Virus record (IMG/VR): IMGVR_UViG_3300015203_000021
Span: 1-34,318 of that record
Length of the DNA: 34,318 nt
Origin: a virus
Lineage: Duplodnaviria > Caudoviricetes
Direction: 5' to 3' (one strand)
Positions 1,031-32,608 of this stretch are shown here, one piece after another (positions within the stretch are counted from its first letter, which is position 1; the number at the start of each line of letters is the position of its first letter). Under the pieces are notes generated by a model that was given only the letters and a program-made list of their open reading frames with translations, did not search any database and was not told where the DNA came from. A program made the translations under genes and the position numbers.

Positions 1031-1384
1031 CTATCTAAAGAAAAAGTTGATATCGTTTTCGCCGCTAGTAGCTGAAGCGCTCACCGCGCGAATACTAACT
1101 CGGCTGCCGGCTGAAATGGTCAAGGGAAAATCGCCACCACCGGGTGGGATAATAAGCATTTGGACTTCATTGCCCGAAGTACCCAGACCCAGTTGCAACG
1201 TTTGGCCGCTTGAATCAAATACGGTGATCCTACCTACGGGATTGGTAAGTGAGTGAATAACCTCAACCCAACTAGCCGTTGTGACCGGGGTGCTAGCATA
1301 AACAATTCGATTCGAAATACCCGAATCAAGTGCAAAAGCTAACGAGGCGAAGGCCGTAAATAGGGCAATAATAAAATATCTCAT
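1031..1384 (-). CDS. Small beta-rich protein with predicted Sec signal peptide (possible virion decoration)
   Basis: MRYFIIALFTAFASLAFA|LDS; ATGA overlap with the stop of the upstream SEC-C ORF; beta-strand-like composition. Confidence 0.7.
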   Translation of the reverse strand: MRYFIIALFTAFASLAFALDSGISNRIVYASTPVTTASWVEVIHSLTNPVGRITVFDSSGQTLQLGLGTSGNEVQMLIIPPGGGDFPLTISAGSRVSIRAVSASATSGENDINFFFR

Positions 1385-6153: not shown

Positions 6154-6351
6154 ATGATTAACACTCGCCAAGAAACTCAACAACTAATCAAAAACGCTCT
6201 CGCATCGATTTACAAGATAAGTCCAAATGACTTAAACCCGATAACCGAGCGACCTTTTTTCATACTCGCAGTTCGTTACTTAGAGCGAATGGTTGAAATT
6301 AAGGTTAATTTTTTCGAGGAGCAGAAAACTCGTCCGGACGAACCAACTTGA
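6154..6351 (+). CDS. Hypothetical protein, 65 aa
   Basis: ORF directly behind a consensus promoter; no recognisable motif. Confidence 0.55.
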   Translation: MINTRQETQQLIKNALASIYKISPNDLNPITERPFFILAVRYLERMVEIKVNFFEEQKTRPDEPT

Positions 6352-6571
6352 ACTTTTTCATCATTTCGGAAAGCGTTGTGCGATTAAGCCCCAAAAGGCT
6401 GGCACTTTTGCTCACGTTCCATTCGGTTTGCCGAAGGGCTTCGAGCACCATGGCGAGTTGGTAAGCTCGCACCTCGGCCCTAATATCTACACCTTGGGTT
6501 GGGATCACGACTTCAAGTATTGCCATAGAGTTCAGGATGCGGGCAAAATCCAATTGTGTCAAATTCCCCAC
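6305..6571 (-). CDS. Stand-alone Fis-family HTH protein
   Basis: MVLEALRQTEWNVSKSASLLGLNRTTLSEMMKKF matches the NtrC/Fis C-terminal HTH pattern. Confidence 0.8.
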   Translation of the reverse strand: MGNLTQLDFARILNSMAILEVVIPTQGVDIRAEVRAYQLAMVLEALRQTEWNVSKSASLLGLNRTTLSEMMKKFKLVRPDEFSAPRKN

Positions 6572-21543: not shown

Positions 21544-22785
21544 TTAATTTAAACTGTTAATAATTGCCAAAAGTTGATTACTTATTTTTAATTTCAAAGC
21601 TGAAACTGCATCCGAGACGGATTTATCTAATTGCGCCTGAGTGTAGGTTACGGGAGTCGGTGTGACCGGAGGAATTACCGGAGGAGTTACGGGTTGGGTT
21701 GGAACGAAAGTCCCGTCATAAGTTACAATTGCCGTGGCGGTTGCTCCCGTGGCATCGGTTACTTTTACCGTGCAGACTCCCGCACCGCCCGAAGCGGCAA
21801 AGTTTCCGGCCCTCGAATCAATCCAACCAAGACCTGACGCAATTGAAAATACGTAGGGCGCTTGTCCGCCGGTTGCTGAAAATTGCACGCTACCGCCGGG
21901 AGAGGTGTGAGCAGTGGTCGGAGTCAGGACAATGGTTGAAACGGGAGTAGGTGTTGGTACGGGTATTGTTGCCACCACTGGAATAGTACCATAAGAAAAT
22001 CCGGAAATATTGGCATAGACATTATCGACAACCGTAATTGGAGGCACTGGGTTGTAACCTTGCCCCCACGGGTTGCGAATATTCATCGAGCCATCGGCGT
22101 TAAAGCCCGTGACTGTGTAGACGTGATTGCTCACAAGATTACGTCCAGCACCCGGAGGAGTGGACATGGTGACGGCTAATCCTTTGTCAAAGAGTGCTTT
22201 TGCTTGGGCAAGGCCCGCAGCTCCCTCACCGTATACATATCCCGCGGGGACACATCCAAGATCGGAAGCGACCGCCACACTGGAACCATAATCGAGACTA
22301 TGGAATGTATCAGTAACGGTGCGAAATGCAGCATAGGCTTTTTCCATGATCGTTGCCCAAAGTTCAGGCGAAGCCTGGTTAACTTGGTTTTCGATAGGGC
22401 TGATCATTAAATCGCAGTGAACGCGCGTAATAATCCCTTGGCGCTGGTACTGCACTAAAACCTGTTTAGGATTGGAGGGGTCGTAATAGACATTGGATTT
22501 AATAAGTGCCTGACCAGGGACACGCATCGCGAGAGCACCTAAGAAGGAAAGAAAATAACAATCGGCAATCTGGTCTTGGTTAATGCTTTCGATAGATACG
22601 GTAGAAAACAGCGGAATACCGTCCCCGGTAACTAAAGCACCAAGATCAAGCGGGTCGCCCGCTACAACATCAATGATTGTCGCGCCAGAAATATGCACCT
22701 CTTCAATGGCTAGGCCTTTGAGTGCATTTTTGGCGGCAAAGTGGTCAGACCACAGCTTGATTAGTTTCTGTTTTTCTGGGCGCAT
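21544..22785 (-). CDS. Calpain-like (peptidase C2) cysteine protease with Ig-like domain
   Basis: QDQIADCYFLS (Cys), ELWATIMEKAYA, NHVYTV (His), IRNPWG (Asn); Pro/Thr linkers flank a beta-sandwich domain. Confidence 0.85.
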   Translation of the reverse strand: MRPEKQKLIKLWSDHFAAKNALKGLAIEEVHISGATIIDVVAGDPLDLGALVTGDGIPLFSTVSIESINQDQIADCYFLSFLGALAMRVPGQALIKSNVYYDPSNPKQVLVQYQRQGIITRVHCDLMISPIENQVNQASPELWATIMEKAYAAFRTVTDTFHSLDYGSSVAVASDLGCVPAGYVYGEGAAGLAQAKALFDKGLAVTMSTPPGAGRNLVSNHVYTVTGFNADGSMNIRNPWGQGYNPVPPITVVDNVYANISGFSYGTIPVVATIPVPTPTPVSTIVLTPTTAHTSPGGSVQFSATGGQAPYVFSIASGLGWIDSRAGNFAASGGAGVCTVKVTDATGATATAIVTYDGTFVPTQPVTPPVIPPVTPTPVTYTQAQLDKSVSDAVSALKLKISNQLLAIINSLN

Positions 22786-23771: not shown

Positions 23772-24200
23772 CTATTTTGTTGGGTTGACCGAATCAACTT
23801 TCACTTTAAATTTGGTGACAGCATCACTGCAGTTCATTTGCTTGCATGCATTGATGATGTAGGTCGCAAGTGGCGCGTACGATTCAACCGAGGGCACATA
23901 TACTGATTCAGCTTTAATCGCGCTCCAAGGCTTACCGTTGAGCCAAGATGCTTGCGCTTCGCCGACATACACTTGGTGTCCTGAAACGATATAGGTACAG
24001 TGTCCGCATTCGGGTTCGTTAATTGCGGCCACACACGCAGGACTCGGTTTTAAAACCAAATGTCCCGAGCCTAAATCTTGTGCCAAATGTTGTGCAAGTG
24101 CTTCACAAACGGGCACATCGGGGGGTTGGGGAGCGCAGCTAAGTAGTAACGCAAACAAACTCATTAAAAGCGGCAATTTCTTTTTGCTCGGCCTCGGCAT
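23772..24200 (-). CDS. Cys-rich lipoprotein, candidate o-spanin-like
   Basis: MPRPSKKKLPLLMSLFALLLS|CAPQPP lipobox; overlaps the 3' end of the upstream membrane-protein gene; downstream of the endolysin. Confidence 0.6.
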   Translation of the reverse strand: MPRPSKKKLPLLMSLFALLLSCAPQPPDVPVCEALAQHLAQDLGSGHLVLKPSPACVAAINEPECGHCTYIVSGHQVYVGEAQASWLNGKPWSAIKAESVYVPSVESYAPLATYIINACKQMNCSDAVTKFKVKVDSVNPTK

Positions 24201-24501
24201 AAACTTCGTTAGTTGCGTCGACAGGAAGATTTTCTTTATAAAATTTTGCATTGAGATAGTCTCCTGCTTGACCTGATTTTCGTAAAGAGGTGTTTAAGAA
24301 AAAAGCTTGCATGACGGACCAAGTGGAAATCTTATTTAAGACCCAAGTCAAAAAGGGGCCGAGAAACACTTTGGTGAACCAAGCGGCTACGGGCCCAAAG
24401 CCCGGCACAGCTAAGATCAGCCCCATTATATATGTTTGGGCGGCGGTTACGAAAGTCTGTCGTAGGTTCTCGACCAAATCCGTTATGTCGATGCTACTCA
24501 T
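24139..24501 (-). CDS. Membrane-associated protein, candidate i-spanin-like/lysis accessory
   Basis: Hydrophobic/amphipathic central region; coupled to the EEP stop; overlapped by a lipoprotein gene. Confidence 0.45.
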   Translation of the reverse strand: MSSIDITDLVENLRQTFVTAAQTYIMGLILAVPGFGPVAAWFTKVFLGPFLTWVLNKISTWSVMQAFFLNTSLRKSGQAGDYLNAKFYKENLPVDATNEVYAEAEQKEIAAFNEFVCVTT

Positions 24502-25115
24502 AATTTCTCGCATTCGAAACTCATCCACGGATGGTCAGATAGTCCGCGGCCTGTTTTGAAATCGGAGCATTTTAAGTCGCGAATGAAAACCATATCGAAA
24601 GTTTTCTTGCTATCGTAAGGAACCGAATTAAAGAATTCAAAGCCAAATTCATGGCACACCCGTTTTACTTCCGAGATATGCTCGGGTGTCCAGCTATTGA
24701 AATCTCCGGCGAATACGGCCGGACCCTGGGAGTTCATGGCTGAAAGCACCGCGCCCACGTGGTCAATTAAGTACTCAACGTCTTTTCTAGGCCACCCGTT
24801 ATAACCGTGCATCGATGCAAATTGAACACCATCAACGGTGCCAATAGCTGTGGCCTTTTTGACACCGATTAGGATCTCTTCGTGCGGGCTTAAAACGACC
24901 ATGGTGCGCTCAATCGGGAGAACCGAGTGAATGGTCGTACCGGTGGGCGAACCGCGCTTATCGAAGCTCTGAGCTAGAAACATGCTGTAAGGAGCGGCTA
25001 GCGTAGGATTTTCACTAAGCCAAAATTCTTGGAATAAAGCGACATCCGGTTTTTGAGCTGCCAAAATGCTGGCAGCTAAAGCCATTTTGTGGAGGTTCCA
25101 AGAAAGTATCAGCAT
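24498..25115 (-). CDS. Endonuclease/exonuclease/phosphatase (EEP) family protein, YafD-like
   Basis: ILSWNL, PDVALFQE, AGDFNSW, FDMVF.R, SDHP. Confidence 0.88.
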   Translation of the reverse strand: MLILSWNLHKMALAASILAAQKPDVALFQEFWLSENPTLAAPYSMFLAQSFDKRGSPTGTTIHSVLPIERTMVVLSPHEEILIGVKKATAIGTVDGVQFASMHGYNGWPRKDVEYLIDHVGAVLSAMNSQGPAVFAGDFNSWTPEHISEVKRVCHEFGFEFFNSVPYDSKKTFDMVFIRDLKCSDFKTGRGLSDHPWMSFECEKL

Positions 25116-25195: not shown

Positions 25196-25663
25196 TTACT
25201 TAATTTCTTGCGCGGCGGGGCCACCGAGCGAAGTTTCGATAAGATTGATTACAGTTACATAAATTGCACCAAGACCCGGGATGGTTTTAACCATGTCGAG
25301 AATCTCGTGCATAAATACGGCACCGCCGCCGGCTGCAACGTAGGCAAAAAGTTTGCCCAAAGTTACTGGACCGCCGCCGGCAACACTGAGTAACCCTGCA
25401 ATGAGGCCCATAACCGGCGCAACCCAAATTTGGTAAGTTCCAAGTTTGGACCACACGTATTGGTTGATAATAGAGACTTTCATGGAAGCGATGATGAGAA
25501 CAATCACGGCACTGATTTTCAGCATCGTGGACATACCGCCCATGGCTTTAACTGCGGTGATAACTTGAGACAAAAAGTCTTGTGGCGCAACGGGCGCAAC
25601 AACAGCTTGAGCGAAAACGGAAAACGCAAACATTCCTAAAATTAAGACAAATAGTTTTTTCAT
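25196..25663 (-). CDS. Multi-TM membrane protein with cleavable signal peptide, holin/antiholin candidate
   Basis: MKKLFVLILGMFAFSVFA|QA followed by about three hydrophobic segments; directly after the endolysin. Confidence 0.6.
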   Translation of the reverse strand: MKKLFVLILGMFAFSVFAQAVVAPVAPQDFLSQVITAVKAMGGMSTMLKISAVIVLIIASMKVSIINQYVWSKLGTYQIWVAPVMGLIAGLLSVAGGGPVTLGKLFAYVAAGGGAVFMHEILDMVKTIPGLGAIYVTVINLIETSLGGPAAQEIK

Positions 25664-25701: not shown

Positions 25702-26127
25702 TCAAATAACGTCAACGCCGGTTCGCATCATGGCCGCCAAATCGTTGGCGCGTTCGCCAACTTGTTTCGCCCATTTTGAATTTTCCATTTCGTACGCGGC
25801 CGCCTCCCACTCCCCATCTTCGAGTGCAGTAATAAGGCGTGTGAAAGTCAGGAGCTTAGGGAGCCCAAGATTAAAAGCCATGTCAACAAGAGCCCGGGCG
25901 CGCACGTCGTCGTCTTTAATTCTGTTCCAAAAATTCTGAGTAGCGAGGTCGTTTACAATATTCGCGATGTCATTGGAAAGAAGTAGCATTGCTTCGGCTT
26001 GAGAAATACCGTTATCTGCCAAATTTCTGCCAACACCAATGGTGAGAATACCCGCGGTGTCGGTATACGGTTTGAGCTTTAATCCTTCATGATTCATGAT
26101 TTGTGATTGAAGCCGGACCAGATTCAT
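25702..26127 (-). CDS. Endolysin, GH24/T4-lysozyme-like
   Basis: HEGLKLKPYTDTAGILTIGVGRNL (E-x8-D-x5-T), MAFNLG, SKWAKQVGERA. Confidence 0.92.
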   Translation of the reverse strand: MNLVRLQSQIMNHEGLKLKPYTDTAGILTIGVGRNLADNGISQAEAMLLLSNDIANIVNDLATQNFWNRIKDDDVRARALVDMAFNLGLPKLLTFTRLITALEDGEWEAAAYEMENSKWAKQVGERANDLAAMMRTGVDVI

Positions 26128-26357
26128 TTTTTACGACTCTCTTCGATTCGGATTAACCGTTGAATAATGTCGTCTAATTTTTCAGTTACCTTTTCGCTTT
26201 TGGTTTCAAGAGAGGCCACTTTTTCAGTATTTGAAACCCCGTTGGCGTAAACCATCGTTAGCCAGCCGATACCGCCGATTAGAGCGATAACCATTGAAAC
26301 AGGAACTAAAGTGTTTTCAGTGAATTTCTGCAGCATAGGAACACCCTCCTTTTTCAT
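26124..26357 (-). CDS. Single-TM coiled-coil protein, holin-like
   Basis: One TM segment then heptads; coupled to the endolysin start. True start may be the internal MLQKF after GGAGG. Confidence 0.6.
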   Translation of the reverse strand: MKKEGVPMLQKFTENTLVPVSMVIALIGGIGWLTMVYANGVSNTEKVASLETKSEKVTEKLDDIIQRLIRIEESRKK

Positions 26358-26358
26358 T

Positions 26359-26940
26359 TTACAGCTCTACTACGCAAAGGTCGCCATTAATATTTGCTAA
26401 TGGAGTAGATACGTTAGAAGTTGCATCCAGTTCTAACTGTAATTTATAAGTATGACTTCCAGCGGATGGAGCATTGAACCAAACTCCGCTAGACGGAAAA
26501 AATTCATTCGCAGATGCAGTTGAAGAATTTGAAAAAGCTTCTACGTTCATAGATATATTACCAGGTCCGACTTGTGACCCGTCCATCAATAAAATATAAT
26601 CAGCTCCCACAGTATATCTAGAATTTGCTGTCGTTCCAGCCCAACTTACTCCAAAACTATTCGCTATAGAATTAGTAACTGAAGTACAAACCGATATCAT
26701 CACAGGTCGTCCAGTGGTTGTCAAAGTGACGGAACTACCAGTAACGTCTACATATGAGGTGGACGAAGTAGTAAAAGCAAAAAATCCAGCTCGTGAAACT
26801 GTCTTCGTTGCAAGCTTCGCCTGCGTTACAGCACCGGCTGCAAGTTTTGAAGTCGTAACCGATAAATCCGGAATTACGTAACTAGCATACGAAACTCCAG
26901 TGATAAGAATAAAAAATAAAATCCAATTAAGTTTTTTCAT
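26359..26940 (-). CDS. Fibre/receptor-binding-like protein with predicted Sec signal peptide
   Basis: AAGGAG RBS; MKKLNWILFFILITGVSYA|SY; VTTSKLA.GAVTQAKLA fibre repeats; C-terminal TSSTSYVDVTG...SAGSHTYKLQ domain. Confidence 0.75.
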   Translation of the reverse strand: MKKLNWILFFILITGVSYASYVIPDLSVTTSKLAAGAVTQAKLATKTVSRAGFFAFTTSSTSYVDVTGSSVTLTTTGRPVMISVCTSVTNSIANSFGVSWAGTTANSRYTVGADYILLMDGSQVGPGNISMNVEAFSNSSTASANEFFPSSGVWFNAPSAGSHTYKLQLELDATSNVSTPLANINGDLCVVEL

Positions 26941-26949
26941 AGCGTCTCC

Positions 26950-27621
26950 TTACAAGATATCCCAAGTCGTGCCGTTATTAAATACCGTCGTTGAGTTTCC
27001 AAAAGCTTCCATGTCGGCATTCGTATTAGCGCCATCAATCAGTTCCGCGCCATTGCCCTTTATGGTCAGGGTGTGAGTGCCAACGTTTTTAATAATGAAC
27101 TTTTTACCCTTCGAGGTAGCAATAGTCGGGAGTGTAATCGTGAAACCGGCGCTCGTCGTATCTCCGCGAATAATTTCATCAGAAATTAACGCGGTGTAAG
27201 TGGTAGAAACGTTGGTGGGACTTGCGCCACCTTGAACGCGCCAATTCGTACCATCGGTCAAAGCGTTATTTAAATTTGAATTTGTAATTGAGACGTAGAT
27301 TATACCTGAACCATTATTAACCATACTGCCCACAAAATAATTCGTAGTAGCGTCCCACTCAGCTATACCGGTTTGCATAAGATAGGCCACTTGGTAGGCC
27401 ATGACGTAGCAAAAAGCGTTCATGTCTTCAATCGCTGGGCTATTGCCTCCGATAACGGCACCAAGCCAACCTTGTAACCAATTGGAAAGGGACTGAATAA
27501 CGGTCGGGTCCGTTGAATAAACCGGGGTGCCCGCAGCTAAACTACCGAATTCACCGATATCGGTTGCGCCGGCGGTACTTCCGAATATTTTTGCGATCTT
27601 ACGAACAATTTTTGTAGCCAT
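26950..27621 (-). CDS. Baseplate-anchored short tail fibre/adaptor (no signal peptide)
   Basis: Follows the DUF2612-like gene; EDMNA..Y...YQVAYLMQTGIAEWD.TT.Y anchor motif; C-terminal FTITLP...IDG domain. Confidence 0.75.
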   Translation of the reverse strand: MATKIVRKIAKIFGSTAGATDIGEFGSLAAGTPVYSTDPTVIQSLSNWLQGWLGAVIGGNSPAIEDMNAFCYVMAYQVAYLMQTGIAEWDATTNYFVGSMVNNGSGIIYVSITNSNLNNALTDGTNWRVQGGASPTNVSTTYTALISDEIIRGDTTSAGFTITLPTIATSKGKKFIIKNVGTHTLTIKGNGAELIDGANTNADMEAFGNSTTVFNNGTTWDIL

Positions 27622-27630
27622 AAAAACTCC

Positions 27631-28254
27631 TTAAGCTGAAATCGCATTTGAGTACCGCACCCACGGGCTACTCATATTATAAGATACATATGTATTAAAT
27701 GGTGACACGTTAGCGGCGGGTGCCAAATAAGTCCTAAATCCGAAGAACGTATTGACCACGGGGGCGTAAATTGGGAGCGCGAGTTGCACGCCCATGGGTT
27801 TTGGAAACAGACCTTCAGATATAAAAAGTCTGACTAGATTTTGACTCCCCACGCTTGAATTAATCAAGTAACTCATGCGCATGTTTTTGTAATCAAAAAC
27901 GTAAATTTCATTTGGAAAAAATTCGTGAAGTAGATTTTGAATATCCGCTAGCGCACTGCCAAAATTATTTCTAAAAATGGCGAGCTTAATAAGAGATGTG
28001 AAATCTGAATCGCTTAACGTGATCGCTGTGCCGCCGACATAACCAGTTCGCGTAACTCCCACGTATTTTCCGATAGTGTCTAATTGCACCCCCGTTGCCG
28101 TATCGATGCTGAAAGCATTTTGAACTGCGAGGGGTAATTGACTCATGATTACCGGAGTTACTAACGCTTGAATATGGGCATAAGCGTTGGGCTTACCGCG
28201 ATACTGAAGAATCAAAAGATTCGCGTAGTAATTTATCAAATCGCTATTGGTCAT
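27631..28254 (-). CDS. DUF2612-family baseplate wedge protein
   Basis: Y.NLLILQY.GKP.A, F.IDTA.GVQLD.IGKYVGV.R, LFPKPMGV. Confidence 0.82.
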   Translation of the reverse strand: MTNSDLINYYANLLILQYRGKPNAYAHIQALVTPVIMSQLPLAVQNAFSIDTATGVQLDTIGKYVGVTRTGYVGGTAITLSDSDFTSLIKLAIFRNNFGSALADIQNLLHEFFPNEIYVFDYKNMRMSYLINSSVGSQNLVRLFISEGLFPKPMGVQLALPIYAPVVNTFFGFRTYLAPAANVSPFNTYVSYNMSSPWVRYSNAISA

Positions 28255-29654
28255 GCGGTTGTCACCAACGCCGTGGCTGAATTAGCCAGTGTATCAACGA
28301 CTTTTATCGTATCGGTAAATCCTGCAGTTCCCGCGGTGTAAACGCCAGTAGAGGAGTTAATTGAGCCGCCGCTATTATTTACGAAAATCGAATACGTGTA
28401 CGGTCCAAAACCTCCGAGAGCGGAGAAGGTTTCCATAAGCCCGGCCCCAACGGTTGAGGTGGTCGGATTTAGAATTATGGGCGTGATGATGATATCGGGT
28501 GAAGTAATGATGAATTGATTGTTTTTAGCGGTGGGCGTGAGCGTGTTGGTGTAAGTACCACCGGATGAAGAACTAAACCCAGCGTTCGTAACCAAAGTGT
28601 TGGGGTCAATGGCCTGAACTAGCGTTGCCAGTTGGTTCACGTTTACTTCTTGGTTTACCCCGGGCTTGAAAGAATTGACGAGTCCAGTGCGAATAGCCGC
28701 GATATTTGGCGCGTTAATTCCGTCAAGTGACGTAGCCGTAAACTTAATGAATAGCGGTTGAGTGGTCACTACGTCCCAATTTACGACAAAGGAACTCCCG
28801 TCAACTTGGGTTACTGTGAAAGAAGTTGCGCCGTACATACCACACCCGGCGTTACGTTTGGTGTAGATGGCATTGGCGATATCGGCTGCCGCGGCGGTTC
28901 CGGCTACAATCACCCAAATTGAATGCCCGGGTACGCCATCACCATTGGTGGCGTTGGTATTATTTTCGTAAACAAAGGCCGAGGTGATACCATTGATATT
29001 TTCGAGAGCTGCAAGAAGACTTGCAAGATAACCTTGTGACGAAAGGGAAACTGATTGTTGGCGTCGAATCTTAAGCTGCGCGTCGGTTTCCTCGTTGATG
29101 CCAAGCGTAGTGTAAGTCGTAGGGTTATTAATCGAGGTCACGCCCAAAATAATGGTCACGGGCACCGTAATGGTATTGGGGATAGTAAGATTCGCACCCG
29201 GAGTTGCGGCCTTGAACGCATAAACATATGTTCCGGGAGTTGCTATGGTTTGACTTGCGATGAGCTGCCAATGGTTTCCGGCGTTATCCGCCACCGTGAA
29301 AATTTCTTGACCCTCTTGATCGAGACCATAAAGATTTAATGCTTGAGCAATCACCAAAGTGACGTTGGTGATAGTGTAAGTACCGGCTTGGCGCTGAATC
29401 CCGTTAATCGCCACACGTTGGTCAAGCACTGCACCAATAGCGTTATCAGGGTCAAACGAGTTATAGATTTGCGTGAGTAAATCTTCGAGGTCGAGCACGG
29501 ATTGAATAAAGAGGTTGATCGCTTGCCCGTCCGGTGAGTCCGAATCCAAATTGATGTCGGAACCGTAGATAGCTTGGAACGCGGCCGTATATTGCGCAAT
29601 CAACTCTGCCCGTGTTGCCGTTTGTAGCCCTGTAGCATCAATTAAATTTGGCAT
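28251..29654 (-). CDS. Baseplate J-like protein with C-terminal Ig-like extension
   Basis: IYG.DI.L..DSPDGQ, YNSFDP..A.G..LD, G.NEETDAQL..RR, VYEN.T, VPGHSIWVIV.G. Confidence 0.88.
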   Translation of the reverse strand: MPNLIDATGLQTATRAELIAQYTAAFQAIYGSDINLDSDSPDGQAINLFIQSVLDLEDLLTQIYNSFDPDNAIGAVLDQRVAINGIQRQAGTYTITNVTLVIAQALNLYGLDQEGQEIFTVADNAGNHWQLIASQTIATPGTYVYAFKAATPGANLTIPNTITVPVTIILGVTSINNPTTYTTLGINEETDAQLKIRRQQSVSLSSQGYLASLLAALENINGITSAFVYENNTNATNGDGVPGHSIWVIVAGTAAAADIANAIYTKRNAGCGMYGATSFTVTQVDGSSFVVNWDVVTTQPLFIKFTATSLDGINAPNIAAIRTGLVNSFKPGVNQEVNVNQLATLVQAIDPNTLVTNAGFSSSSGGTYTNTLTPTAKNNQFIITSPDIIITPIILNPTTSTVGAGLMETFSALGGFGPYTYSIFVNNSGGSINSSTGVYTAGTAGFTDTIKVVDTLANSATALVTTA

Positions 29655-29662
29655 CGTATCTC

Positions 29663-29782
29663 CTAAAGTTTTTTACAAGCAAACATTCCGCCGTCACCTT
29701 GGACGGGCTGACAATCGCGAACTAAAATCGGTTTGCTCATGCACCCGGAAAGAAATAAAATACCGATAATTAATTTTTTCAT
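29663..29782 (-). CDS. 39-aa lipoprotein (not in ORF track)
   Basis: AGGAG-N6-ATG; MKKLIIGILFLSG|CMSKPILVRDCQPVQGDGGMFACKKL. Confidence 0.75.
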   Translation of the reverse strand: MKKLIIGILFLSGCMSKPILVRDCQPVQGDGGMFACKKL

Positions 29783-29791
29783 TTTCATCTC

Positions 29792-32170
29792 CTATTGGTA
29801 ATATTCTTCAACGATGATTTGTCCGCCAGCGCCAGCGCCACCGGCATTGCCCCCAGTTCCAGTACTGCCACCGGTGTTCCCGGCTACGGCTGCGGAATAA
29901 GAAAAAGTTTGTCCGGCCGTTGGTGTGATAATTGCTTCGATATAACCGCCAGAACTTCCCCCTGGCCCAGAATAAGAATTTAAAGCGGCACCGTTACCGC
30001 CGCCGCCGCCACCAGAGCCAGTGTCGGCAAGCCCTGCGCCTCCAGTTTGGTTATAACCTGAGCTACCGCCGCCCCCGAATACGCTCGACCCGCCTGCGCC
30101 ACCAGCTGTATCAACCGTTGTAATGTTTTGGTAATTGGCGCCGCCGCCCTGGCTCCCGGCTTGATTTACTAAAATAATAGGGCCAGCTGAAACAGTGTTT
30201 GCATTTCCCGAAGCCCCACTTGTTCCGCCACCCGCGCCCCCATTGCCGGCACTTGCCGTTAGGTTTGGACCGAAAGTTGTTGATGAGCCTGCGCCGCCAT
30301 TTTGTCCGGTACTTGCCGCAGTTCCAGAGCCCGCGCCACCACCACCGCCGCCAACCATTCGCACCCGAATATAAAGTACGTTTGCAGGCGTGGTATAAGT
30401 CCCCGAGCCAGTTAGATTAAATCCCCCGCTATGAGCGCTTCCAGTAACGCGACTAACTGTGGGCGCTGTAAAAGTTTTAAAAGTAGGAGAGCCGGTCCCG
30501 CCCGAGATCACCATTTGTCCAGCCGTCCCAGCTGAAGAATACGCATGCGCCGTACCCGTGCCATAACCAATGCCGCCAGCTGTTGCCGTAGCTGTCGAGT
30601 TAGTTCCACCATTTGCAATCGGTAGAGTGCCCGATACGTCAGCCGTTAAACTTGCGGCACCGAACGTCGGTGCACCCGAGGCGTTGCCATGAAGAACTGT
30701 GGTAGTAGTTCCCAGCGAACCAAGAACCGCGGGGGCCACACCGACACCACCGCCCACGACCAAAGCGTTGGCAGTTAATACGGCCGAACTTGAAAGAGCC
30801 GAAGTTGAACTAAAATAAGGTACGCCGCCCGATGTCCCGGTAGTAGTCAGTCCCAAAGTACCTGTCGCGGTTACGGGTGAGCCGGTTGCGGAAAAAATGC
30901 TCGTGGCGGGAACAGACAATCCAACTGAAGTGACCGTGCCGCCTCCGCCGGGCGTTGTCCAGCTACCGTCGGCGCGCAGGAAATTAATTGTGCCGCCACC
31001 GGATGCCGGAGTAAGTCCTTGAAGGGACGAGGTAAAAGCATTCAAATCGGCTGTGAGTTGAGTGGGGGTAATGTCCGCGGCATTTGCAGTCGAACCGGTG
31101 TTGTTTCCTTTATAGGTGTGCGCCCCCATGGTGGCTAATTGCGCATTAGTGACTTTATTTGCACCAATGGAGGCGGCAAAAGTTCCCGTACCTGAACCGG
31201 TCACATCTCCCGTTAAAGCGATAGTTTGGTCTCCGGTGTTGGTGCCAGAAAGATTAGAGCCACTTACGGCACCTGACGCGGCCACCGATGACGGCGTAAT
31301 GGCACCAAGAGTAAGAGTTATTGCGGGTGTTGAAGTTGCCGTGGCTACTGATCCCGAAACCCCATTAGCGGTAGAAACCGAAACCGACGTGACAGTGCCC
31401 GCGTTGAGCGGAGGGGCCGCCCACGTGCCGTCAGCTCTGAGAAAATTGCTCGTTCCGCCACCGGACGAGGGGGCTAGACCTTGAAGACTCGAAGTGAAGG
31501 GATTTAAAAGAGCGGTAGCTTGAGTCGGAGTCTGCGAAACAATAGATTTACCACTGTCGAGATACGCAAAAGTGCTGGCTGTAGCTGCGGGAACGGTAAC
31601 GGCGCCGCTTAAGTTTGCGCTAATAGTTCCGGCCGAGAAATTTCCCGAGCCATCGCGCGCGACAATCGCTGACGCAGTATTAGCACTTGCTGCCGTAGTA
31701 GCTGAATTGGCAACCTTACCGGTGGTTGAAATGGTTAAAAGATTGGAATCGGCGATTGAGCCTGCGAGCATCGCATTGGTGACTTTGCCGGCACCAATAG
31801 CTGTTGCACTTTGAGTACCACCAACGTCCCCGACGAGAGTGCCGGTGAAGCTTCCCGCTGAGCCAGATGTGTTTCCGGTTACGTTGCCGGTAAGGTTCCC
31901 GGAAAAAGTTCCGGTAACGGTGCCAGTAAAAGTGGGCGAAGACAGAGGCGCATATAGACTAAATTTTGTCACAAAAGCCGGAGTACCCGGAATATCGCTT
32001 ATGCGAAAGCGTTGGGTGAGCGGAGTACTCGTGGTGTTCACATACGGAAAAGAATCCGCCGTATTAATCGTCGCGGGAGCCGAATTAAGTATTAGGTCAG
32101 AAATTTTTACATCGGCCAGAGCAAAACTCGTAGTTAAAAGGCCGAGTAAAAGAAACAGTCGTTTTGTCAT
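29792..32170 (-). CDS. Long Gly/Thr/Ser-rich tail fibre with predicted Sec signal peptide
   Basis: AAGGAG-N6-ATG 32170; MTKRLFLLLGLLTTSFALA|DVKISDL; motifs LTGNVTGN, IVARDGSGNF, FLRADG.W (x2), GTVTSV (x2), LPIANGGT; Gly-rich C-terminal domain ending GQIIVEEY. Confidence 0.88.
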   Translation of the reverse strand: MTKRLFLLLGLLTTSFALADVKISDLILNSAPATINTADSFPYVNTTSTPLTQRFRISDIPGTPAFVTKFSLYAPLSSPTFTGTVTGTFSGNLTGNVTGNTSGSAGSFTGTLVGDVGGTQSATAIGAGKVTNAMLAGSIADSNLLTISTTGKVANSATTAASANTASAIVARDGSGNFSAGTISANLSGAVTVPAATASTFAYLDSGKSIVSQTPTQATALLNPFTSSLQGLAPSSGGGTSNFLRADGTWAAPPLNAGTVTSVSVSTANGVSGSVATATSTPAITLTLGAITPSSVAASGAVSGSNLSGTNTGDQTIALTGDVTGSGTGTFAASIGANKVTNAQLATMGAHTYKGNNTGSTANAADITPTQLTADLNAFTSSLQGLTPASGGGTINFLRADGSWTTPGGGGTVTSVGLSVPATSIFSATGSPVTATGTLGLTTTGTSGGVPYFSSTSALSSSAVLTANALVVGGGVGVAPAVLGSLGTTTTVLHGNASGAPTFGAASLTADVSGTLPIANGGTNSTATATAGGIGYGTGTAHAYSSAGTAGQMVISGGTGSPTFKTFTAPTVSRVTGSAHSGGFNLTGSGTYTTPANVLYIRVRMVGGGGGGAGSGTAASTGQNGGAGSSTTFGPNLTASAGNGGAGGGTSGASGNANTVSAGPIILVNQAGSQGGGANYQNITTVDTAGGAGGSSVFGGGGSSGYNQTGGAGLADTGSGGGGGGNGAALNSYSGPGGSSGGYIEAIITPTAGQTFSYSAAVAGNTGGSTGTGGNAGGAGAGGQIIVEEYYQ

Positions 32171-32179
32171 CACATCTCC

Positions 32180-32608
32180 TTAAGGTTCAATAGTGATCGG
32201 GTCGCCGGCTTCGGTTACTAGTACCAGACCGCTTTCGGTCACAAGTCGGCTCGTATTCCCACCACTAGATACGATTTGATTAGTGATCACACCCGAAACG
32301 GTATCCACACTATACGTAATCGTAATTAATCTAGCTTGACTTAAAACCAACGAAAGCTCAAGGAGGCTCTTGACGTTGGGCGTGTTAATAATTACCGCGC
32401 TGACTGCGATATTTATCGCTAACTGATTTTTGGCACCCAATAAATTAAACCAATCAATCCCGGCCGATAAATCAAAAAAGCAATCGCCCAGAAAAGAATT
32501 AAGCCTGGTTTGAATGTTTTGGGAAATGGCATTCTTACCCGATTTATAATCGTTTTGACCTTTGCCAAAAAGCCAGTCACCGGTTCCGTCTAATGCACGT
32601 ACAATCAT
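32180..32608 (-). CDS. Baseplate wedge/sheath-initiator-like protein with C-terminal LVTExG repeats
   Basis: MIVRALD..GDW.FG, QNIQTRL..FLGDCFFD...GIDW; tail RLVTESGLVLVTEAGDPITIE. Confidence 0.75.
   Translation of the reverse strand: MIVRALDGTGDWLFGKGQNDYKSGKNAISQNIQTRLNSFLGDCFFDLSAGIDWFNLLGAKNQLAINIAVSAVIINTPNVKSLLELSLVLSQARLITITYSVDTVSGVITNQIVSSGGNTSRLVTESGLVLVTEAGDPITIEP

Follow-up and report, generated by a model that had tools for sequence, protein, structure and literature searches.

The particles of tailed phages are normally completed in the cytoplasm, and their fibres have no signal peptides. The DNA described here (IMG/VR record IMGVR_UViG_3300015203_000021, Caudoviricetes) is a partial myophage genome of 34,318 bases; we refer to this whole record as the window. 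Its baseplate operon encodes two fibre proteins, of 792 and 193 amino acids (aa), which both begin with a leader of the type that is exported by Sec and cut by signal peptidase I (SPI). Because such secretion-type leaders are found on two fibre genes, the fibres are likely made outside the cytoplasm. We propose that both are receptor-binding fibres of the virion, which are exported by Sec and dock at lysis via a tag on the particle, and we put the probability of this reading at roughly 0.65. Two short elements are central to it. The first, KIS, comprises residues 20 to ~65 of the long fibre (DVKISDL...DSFPYVN...TQRF) and forms its predicted mature N-terminus. The second is an LxTExG repeat, here called the tag, in a C-terminal extension of the baseplate wedge protein that is absent from most relatives.

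Phage phi1422 (JQ177062), described as a phiPLPE-like dwarf myovirus of Bdellovibrio (PMC3391216), provides the best cultured match for the baseplate J protein of the window (gp65; 41.8% identity over 99% of the length). A further J match, at 70%, lies on a 45.7-kb contig of an uncultured Bdellovibrionales bacterium genome. In addition, a relative is integrated as a prophage in a 177-kb contig, in a genome from the same phylum as the likely host, where it is flanked by what we take to be ordinary bacterial genes. Together, these three observations indicate that the host is probably a Bdellovibrio-like bacterium. The window shares the conserved terminase-portal and baseplate-fibre modules with phi1422-like and phiPLPE-like dwarf myoviruses, and its phage is an uncultured relative of phi1422; among the eight terminase matches listed, phi1422 is absent.

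In phi1422, the baseplate genes stand in the same order as in the window, and a Fis/sigma-54-type regulator likewise follows the portal. The tag is present, as are a KIS fibre (gp67) and gp73, which is homologous to the anchored short fibre; gp75, with a leader and two cysteines, is related to the 193-aa fibre (37% over 63 residues, E 4e-6 in a pairwise comparison). However, its tag is located on the DUF2612 protein (gp66) and not on the wedge, and gp67, which is annotated as tail fibre, has no leader. The exported long protein is instead encoded by the next gene, gp68 (614 aa, leader-bearing, eight cysteines), which matched only itself in our search. Of 32 phi1422 open reading frames (ORFs) checked for leaders, only gp68 and gp75 passed. 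The main text of the phi1422 genome paper mentions neither mass spectrometry nor signal peptides, and the word 'signal' occurs there once, in a reference (PMC3391216).

A precedent for leader-bearing structural proteins is found in Cellulophaga phage phi18:3 (KC821620), where gp085-gp087 have leader-like N-termini and are annotated as structural from tandem mass spectrometry (MS/MS). None of eight other MS-annotated proteins of this phage that we checked has a leader-like start. Unlike the window phage, phi18:3 belongs to an unrelated family with an unrelated host, and neither KIS nor the tag was detected in it.

On the host side, the mosaic adhesive trimers (MATs) of Bdellovibrio are described as products of host genes that all have a conserved, beta-rich ~130-aa domain directly after the signal peptide, 13 of the 21 ending in an S74 domain (PMC10769870). 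As far as they are described, MATs resemble the window fibres in having a signal peptide, a fibre-like body and swappable tips, and a TNF-like tip occurs in both. In contrast to MATs, the window fibres lie inside a baseplate operon and lack both the ~130-aa N-domain and S74 (no PF13884, S74 peptidase, in either fibre). As stand-ins for MATs we used two MAT-like S74 proteins from the lysogen's genome rather than B. bacteriovorus proteins. Their N-domains match each other (30%, E 2e-5) but nothing in the window. Neither protein is retrieved with the KIS profile, and a comparison of the long fibre with one of them gave no significant likeness. Membership of the window fibres among the MATs was rejected on the absence of the conserved N-domain and S74. 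By analogy, the window fibres would work somewhat like MATs, being exported and having a swappable tip, without being members.

The 792-aa ORF begins with MTKRLFLLLGLLTTSFALA-DVKISDL and the 193-aa ORF with MKKLNWILFFILITGVSYA-SYVIPD. In both genes, AAGGAG is found 5 nucleotides upstream of the ATG. An in-frame GTG directly ahead of the first ATG would extend the protein by one residue only. The next in-frame ATG, GTG or TTG lies at codon 44 of the long fibre, where a Shine-Dalgarno sequence is missing, and at codon 73 of the 193-aa fibre. An internal start was rejected, as neither gene has an in-frame start near the mature N-terminus. The n-regions carry a charge of +2, the best eight-residue hydropathy is 3.15 in the long fibre and 3.25 in the 193-aa fibre, and the residues at -3/-1 are A/A (ALA) and S/A (SYA), respectively. 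All leader calls were made with our own rule-based Sec/SPI heuristic and not with SignalP. No internal window of either fibre passed it (0/727 in the 792-aa and 0/128 in the 193-aa protein). Among 597 N-termini of core baseplate homologues, one passed as SPI, which by eye is a false call, and three were called 'TM?'. Among relatives, leaders recur in 26 of 119 for the long fibre and in 18 of 32 for the 193-aa fibre. Family-wide, it is the length and the cleavage motif of the leader that are conserved, not its sequence (142 clusters, defined at 50% identity). For the long fibre, the first fit of the heuristic places the cut at residue 17, while the alignment of homologues gives D20 as the mature start. 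Taken together, we are highly confident that the leaders of both fibres are functional, and we regard export as the well-supported part of the reading.

A preliminary description of the window had already pointed to the two leaders, to the AAGGAG start without an alternative near the mature N-terminus, to the leaderless core baseplate genes and to the position of the long fibre between the wedge and J genes. All of this is borne out by the above results and by the gene order, in which a 41-aa lipoprotein gene also lies between wedge and J. The description had overlooked this lipoprotein gene, as well as leader-bearing genes at 1-483, 483-1022, 1031-1384 and 25196-25663.

A profile search with KIS retrieved 2707 cluster representatives at E<=0.001, and the position statistics given here refer to the best 150 of these. 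In 142 of the 150, KIS begins at residue 16-27, behind a leader, with an alanine directly preceding it in 107 cases; in four others it stands at residue 3 of a leaderless protein. Since KIS is found directly at the Met in leaderless members, cleavage would give the leader-bearing members the same N-terminus. The family phrog_35419, 'tail fiber protein', is matched by 7 of 26 KIS members but not by the window's own copy, and Pfam and PHROG scans of the full-length 792-aa fibre found no family. Searching the PDB by sequence returned nothing significant for the long fibre, the KIS profile or the tag profile. With tblastn against cultured phages, the KIS stretch of the window gave only matches at E 2-9, and neither another KIS stretch nor the tip gave anything significant. 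In the ESM Atlas, the nearest feature clusters are all viral, and the structure rows fall below a template modelling score of 0.5.

The cysteine content of these proteins provides indirect evidence that the leaders work. Even, odd and zero cysteine numbers are found in 100, 19 and 23 of the 142 leader-bearing KIS proteins, compared with 30, 40 and 18 of 88 leaderless anchored fibres (Fisher p 6e-9). The corresponding figures for 92 leaderless relatives of the long fibre are 33, 41 and 18. An excess of even numbers in leader-bearing proteins is expected because of the oxidising compartment in which they would fold.

Some KIS proteins depart from the usual architecture. Mini KIS proteins of ~100 aa, with a leader but no shaft, are encoded at L003:9684-9986 and L061:9679-9987, two loci where an upstream virion protein also has a tag-like end. 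By eye, their C-terminal end resembles the end of the downstream 538-aa exported fibre in L061, and they are possibly adaptors. Another protein, P0154 (764 aa, leaderless), has nine KIS-like repeats in tandem.

The co-occurrence of KIS with the tag points to a partner. Loci were gathered by J and by wedge; in 106 distinct ones the wedge and DUF2612 genes are both complete, and 90 of these were counted. By pattern, tag and KIS are both present in 22 loci and both absent from 65; three loci have KIS only, and none has the tag only (p 4e-18). The three KIS-only loci each show a variant tag by eye. If the coverage rule is applied to all loci, the numbers become 17, 65, three and none (n=85). In the 25 KIS loci, variant tags counted, the tag is carried by the wedge in 13 and by DUF2612 in 12. 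It ends the gene just before KIS in 16, and the two genes are non-adjacent in the other nine. KIS has a leader in 17 of these loci (two set by eye) and is leaderless in eight. On the J tree, the tag and KIS traits each change 10 times.

We also compared KIS loci from unrelated phages with control loci matched only by the shaft repeat. The tag was found in 4/10 KIS loci versus 3/53 controls at 9 bits, and in 6/10 versus 3/53 at 5 bits. In four out-of-clade tagged loci, the tag stands at the end of the frame that directly precedes the KIS gene. Judged by these matches, the link between tag and KIS looks general beyond the clade, though weaker there. In more distant relatives (L041, L043, L046, L047 and L049), long fibres with leaders occur in the absence of both KIS and tag, which means that there must be further docking codes.

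The tips connect the leader-bearing proteins to leaderless fibres. The tip of the long fibre (residues 571-792) also ends eight leaderless fibres with a baseplate-anchor N-terminus and one leaderless KIS fibre, and the tip of the 193-aa fibre also ends one anchored fibre. From this shared sequence, we assign the tips of both exported proteins to virion fibres. The model of the long-fibre tip has a predicted local distance difference test score (pLDDT) of 92. The tip has a weak match to the glycine-rich family PF21722 (E 0.019, below the cut-off), and its best Foldseek rows are the Bxb1 tail tip and the Pam3 fibre (E 0.016-0.12). The 193-aa protein is modelled as a TNF-like jelly roll (pLDDT 82), for which Foldseek finds the lectin PLTL (E 3e-6) and the binding domain of the A-1(L) short tail fibre (E 2e-4).

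Of 31 anchored fibres with a terminal ~89-aa socket-like domain, seven are followed by a leader gene of the S[YF][VI][IV]P type, as in the 193-aa fibre; of 64 anchored fibres without this domain, none is. The C-terminal ~89-aa domain of the anchored short fibre is therefore likely to be a second socket, and we treat it as a candidate. At L065:8417-10224, three leader-bearing genes lie between wedge and J, and one of the exported proteins has a socket-like domain, an arrangement that suggests branched chains built outside the cytoplasm.

We propose the following sequence of events. The baseplate and the anchored short fibre would assemble in the cytoplasm, with their tags free. The two fibres would cross the inner membrane by Sec, have their leaders cut and trimerise in the periplasm. 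The lysozyme of the operon has no leader, so the holin must open large holes, in line with the canonical lysis logic by which a leaderless lysozyme needs large holin holes. Once the holin-like gene product has opened such holes in the inner membrane, particles and fibres would mix inside the outer membrane, and the fibres would dock on the finished particles. For the long fibre, KIS at the freed N-terminus would bind to the wedge through the LxTExG tag; the 193-aa fibre would use the C-terminal domain of the anchored short fibre as its socket. The long tail fibres of T4 and the tailspikes of P22 attach last, also in vitro, and docking at a late stage is thus feasible. Docking on particles at lysis was one of two options raised in the preliminary description. 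Tag co-occurrence, leaderless KIS proteins in the fibre slot and shared tips speak for it, and the binding itself is a prediction from these sequence patterns. As for the benefit of export, oxidative folding fits the family but not the 792-aa fibre of the window. That a sticky fibre is kept out of the cytoplasm, or that surplus fibre blocks receptors on debris, are guesses.

Several points weigh against this proposal. Sixteen of the 106 loci (less than 2.5 kb downstream, no KIS gene) were dropped from the count, including one, L012, that is tagged and has no KIS in view. The tag pattern and the KIS profile were built from the same loci on which they were tested. Only four independent pairs lie on well-supported branches (three pairs with a regex-only tag call); all four are concordant, but with so few the phylogeny-corrected test is not significant (p 0.125), and kinship may explain the association. 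Outside the clade, the tag at a strict 12 bits is found in 1/10 KIS loci and 0/55 controls (p 0.15), and none of the 150 best KIS proteins is a natural tag-KIS fusion. Foldseek of the long-fibre tip gave no PDB match at E<=0.001. The 792-aa fibre of the window has no cysteine, and we rejected disulfide folding as the reason for its export; the folding motive suggested in the preliminary description fits the family, through its even-cysteine bias, and not this protein. The 193-aa family shows no contrast in parity, with even, odd and zero numbers of 10, 5 and 3 with a leader and 7, 3 and 4 without. Finally, the MS/MS detection of the phi18:3 proteins could reflect co-purification.

These points leave room for other readings. 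The fibres could be exported and act off the virion: an infected or lysogenic cell would display or shed them, and they would serve as adhesins, decoys or receptor blockers. The likely host is described as exporting phage-fibre-like MAT trimers with signal peptides (PMC10769870), and the tip of the 193-aa fibre resembles that of the MAT Bd2734 (E 2e-4). An integrated prophage is also found among the relatives, and the small lipoprotein gene directly follows the long fibre. However, display on the host becomes less likely because the MAT N-domain is absent from the phage fibres; S74 is absent as well, and no membrane anchor is seen beyond the leader. KIS was found in only 4 of 401 sampled genomes of the phylum, a sample that may or may not include B. 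bacteriovorus; the three strong cases lie in phage baseplate modules and the fourth is a weak match on a 4.7-kb contig. Off-virion action would also leave unexplained the parallel distribution of KIS and of a tag carried by cytoplasmic baseplate proteins, as well as the presence of leaderless KIS fibres in the same slot. Host-surface display in the manner of MAT adhesins, the other option of the preliminary description, is weakened by these results, and we consider off-virion action improbable.

Two further readings accept the fibre as a virion part and dispute how it gets there. Exported fibres may join the virion without the tag being their direct partner, tag and KIS being halves of an ancestral junction or bridged by a third protein such as the lipoprotein. 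This would fit the 16 of 25 loci where the tag ends the gene just before KIS, the recurrence of this adjacency in unrelated phages and the small number of well-supported independent pairs. It sits poorly with the nine loci in which the genes are apart and with the complete absence, among 90 adequately covered loci, of a tag without KIS, and a lipoprotein bridge is opposed by the presence of lipoprotein-like genes in three loci only; we see a slim chance for this reading. Alternatively, the leaders could be vestigial or leaky, and the working fibre would be assembled in the cytoplasm from protein that escapes export or that is initiated at a downstream start. Leaderless relatives do show that the module works without export, the long fibre lacks cysteine, and the signal calls are heuristic. 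Yet there is no in-frame start near the mature N-terminus, leader length and cleavage motif are kept across the 142 clusters, and the leader-bearing members show the even-cysteine bias. We regard vestigial leaders as very improbable and retain export followed by docking at lysis as the preferred reading.

In the window, terminase and portal genes lie on the left, followed by a replication block, lysis genes and the minus-strand baseplate operon on the right. The operon runs from hub and spike through the wedge (phrog_120), the 792-aa fibre, the 41-aa lipoprotein, J (phrog_6) and DUF2612 to the fibres, and ends with the 223-aa leaderless fibre, the 193-aa fibre, a holin-like gene and the lysozyme (Table 1). 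The phi1422-like and phiPLPE-like dwarf myoviruses are characterised by genomes of ~45 kb and short contractile tails; genes for head, sheath and tube are missing from this partial contig, and many relatives are found on contigs of 40-49 kb. An assembly artefact was rejected, since the arrangement of leader-bearing fibres is conserved in relatives. Contigs of the one sequencing run that carries window DNA, perhaps its source, show no letter differences, and the look-up of sequencing runs for window DNA listed no RNA run. A scan of the window for promoters and terminators was at chance (10 versus 13.0 and 14 versus 13.3).

Table 1. Features of the baseplate-fibre region of the window, from the wedge gene to the lysis genes.
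Feature	Position	Strand	Basis
Baseplate wedge subunit, 142 aa, leaderless, C-terminal extension with LxTExG tag	32180..32608	-	phrog_120, E 6e-24
LxTExG-repeat tag (RLVTESGLVLVTEAGDPITIE), predicted docking site for KIS	32183..32245	-	alignment, co-occurrence with KIS
19-aa Sec/SPI-type leader of the long fibre	32114..32170	-	heuristic; module position in relatives
KIS module, ~45 aa, predicted mature N-terminus and plug	31979..32113	-	alignment, profile search
792-aa fibre: leader, KIS, Gly/Ser/Thr-rich shaft repeats, glycine-rich tip (~residues 571-792), no Cys	29792..32170	-	
41-aa lipoprotein, LSGC lipobox, two further Cys	29663..29788	-	
Baseplate J-like protein, leaderless	28251..29654	-	phrog_6, E 3e-38
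DUF2612 baseplate protein, leaderless, here without tag (tagged in 12 relatives)	27631..28254	-	PF11041
223-aa leaderless baseplate-anchored short fibre; C-terminal ~89-aa domain a candidate second socket	26950..27621	-	tail-fibre PHROGs, E 1e-11
193-aa fibre: 19-aa leader, short shaft, predicted TNF-like lectin-type tip, Cys85 and Cys189	26359..26940	-	
Holin-like one-helix gene and leaderless lysozyme	25702..26357	-	PF00959; one hydrophobic segment; holin label inferred

Several neighbouring genes deserve mention. Genes for lipoproteins similar to the 41-aa one are found in L079 and L132. A gene of ~250 aa between J and DUF2612 in several relatives (L007:11692, L008:2020, L009:11686 and L077:3076) may encode a glycosyltransferase. 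After the lysozyme, a conserved trio on the minus strand (25196-25663, 24139-24528 and 23772-24251) comprises genes for a membrane protein with a leader, for a protein of 129 aa and for a Cys-rich, lipoprotein-like product, and possibly serves outer-membrane lysis functions. A 413-aa protein (21544-22785, minus strand) combines a calpain-family peptidase domain (PF00648) with a segment that resembles the C-terminal domain of baseplate J (44%). There are two Fis-type helix-turn-helix genes, at 1442-1921 and 6305-6571 (minus strand), and gp46 of phi1422, annotated as a sigma-54-dependent regulator, likewise lies after the portal. At the left end, the leader-bearing genes 1-483, 483-1022 and 1031-1384 (minus strand) sit between the portal block and the missing head genes. 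Of their products, a 179-aa protein has four cysteines and a shaft repeat that also occurs in the long fibre (51% over 43 aa), and a 117-aa protein has leader-bearing relatives in L065 and L099; the three are possibly exported head decorations.

If the proposal is correct, an exported fibre that joins at lysis adds a second compartment to tailed-phage morphogenesis, and the receptor-binding parts of phages gain access to oxidative folding. A wider claim, to which we give even odds, is that periplasmic production of host-recognition fibres, with the virion completed only at lysis, is common to a large group of tailed phages, which rely on a portable plug-and-socket code. In such a code, any baseplate or neck protein could carry the LxTExG tag and any fibre could carry KIS; it would let fibres switch between cytoplasmic and exported production, and could put foreign, disulfide-bonded binders on phage particles. 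The 20-residue tag and its 45-residue partner are easy to assay. With the tag pairing, the locus also brings a cultured test system, as phi1422 on B. bacteriovorus combines the tag with a KIS fibre and two genes for leader-bearing proteins.

Late or branched attachment of receptor-binding proteins is known from other phages. G7C and CBA120 have gp10-like adaptors for branched receptor-binding proteins. Together with the long fibres of T4 and the tailspike of P22, these adaptors resemble the proposed system in separate folding, last attachment or a short segment bound by the N-domain of a partner. To our knowledge, the receptor-binding proteins of T4, P22, G7C, CBA120 and Goslar are all made in the cytoplasm. 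The DUF7941 fibres of Goslar are described as belonging to the late-attaching or branched receptor-binding class, and that paper contains neither 'signal peptide' nor 'periplasm' (bioRxiv 10.64898/2026.04.21.720040). A full-text literature search, covering titles, abstract openings and few subscription journals, found no paper on exported tailed-phage fibres. What is new compared with these systems is the proposed export route; the proteins themselves can be recognised as fibres, and leaderless counterparts are known that occupy their gene slot.

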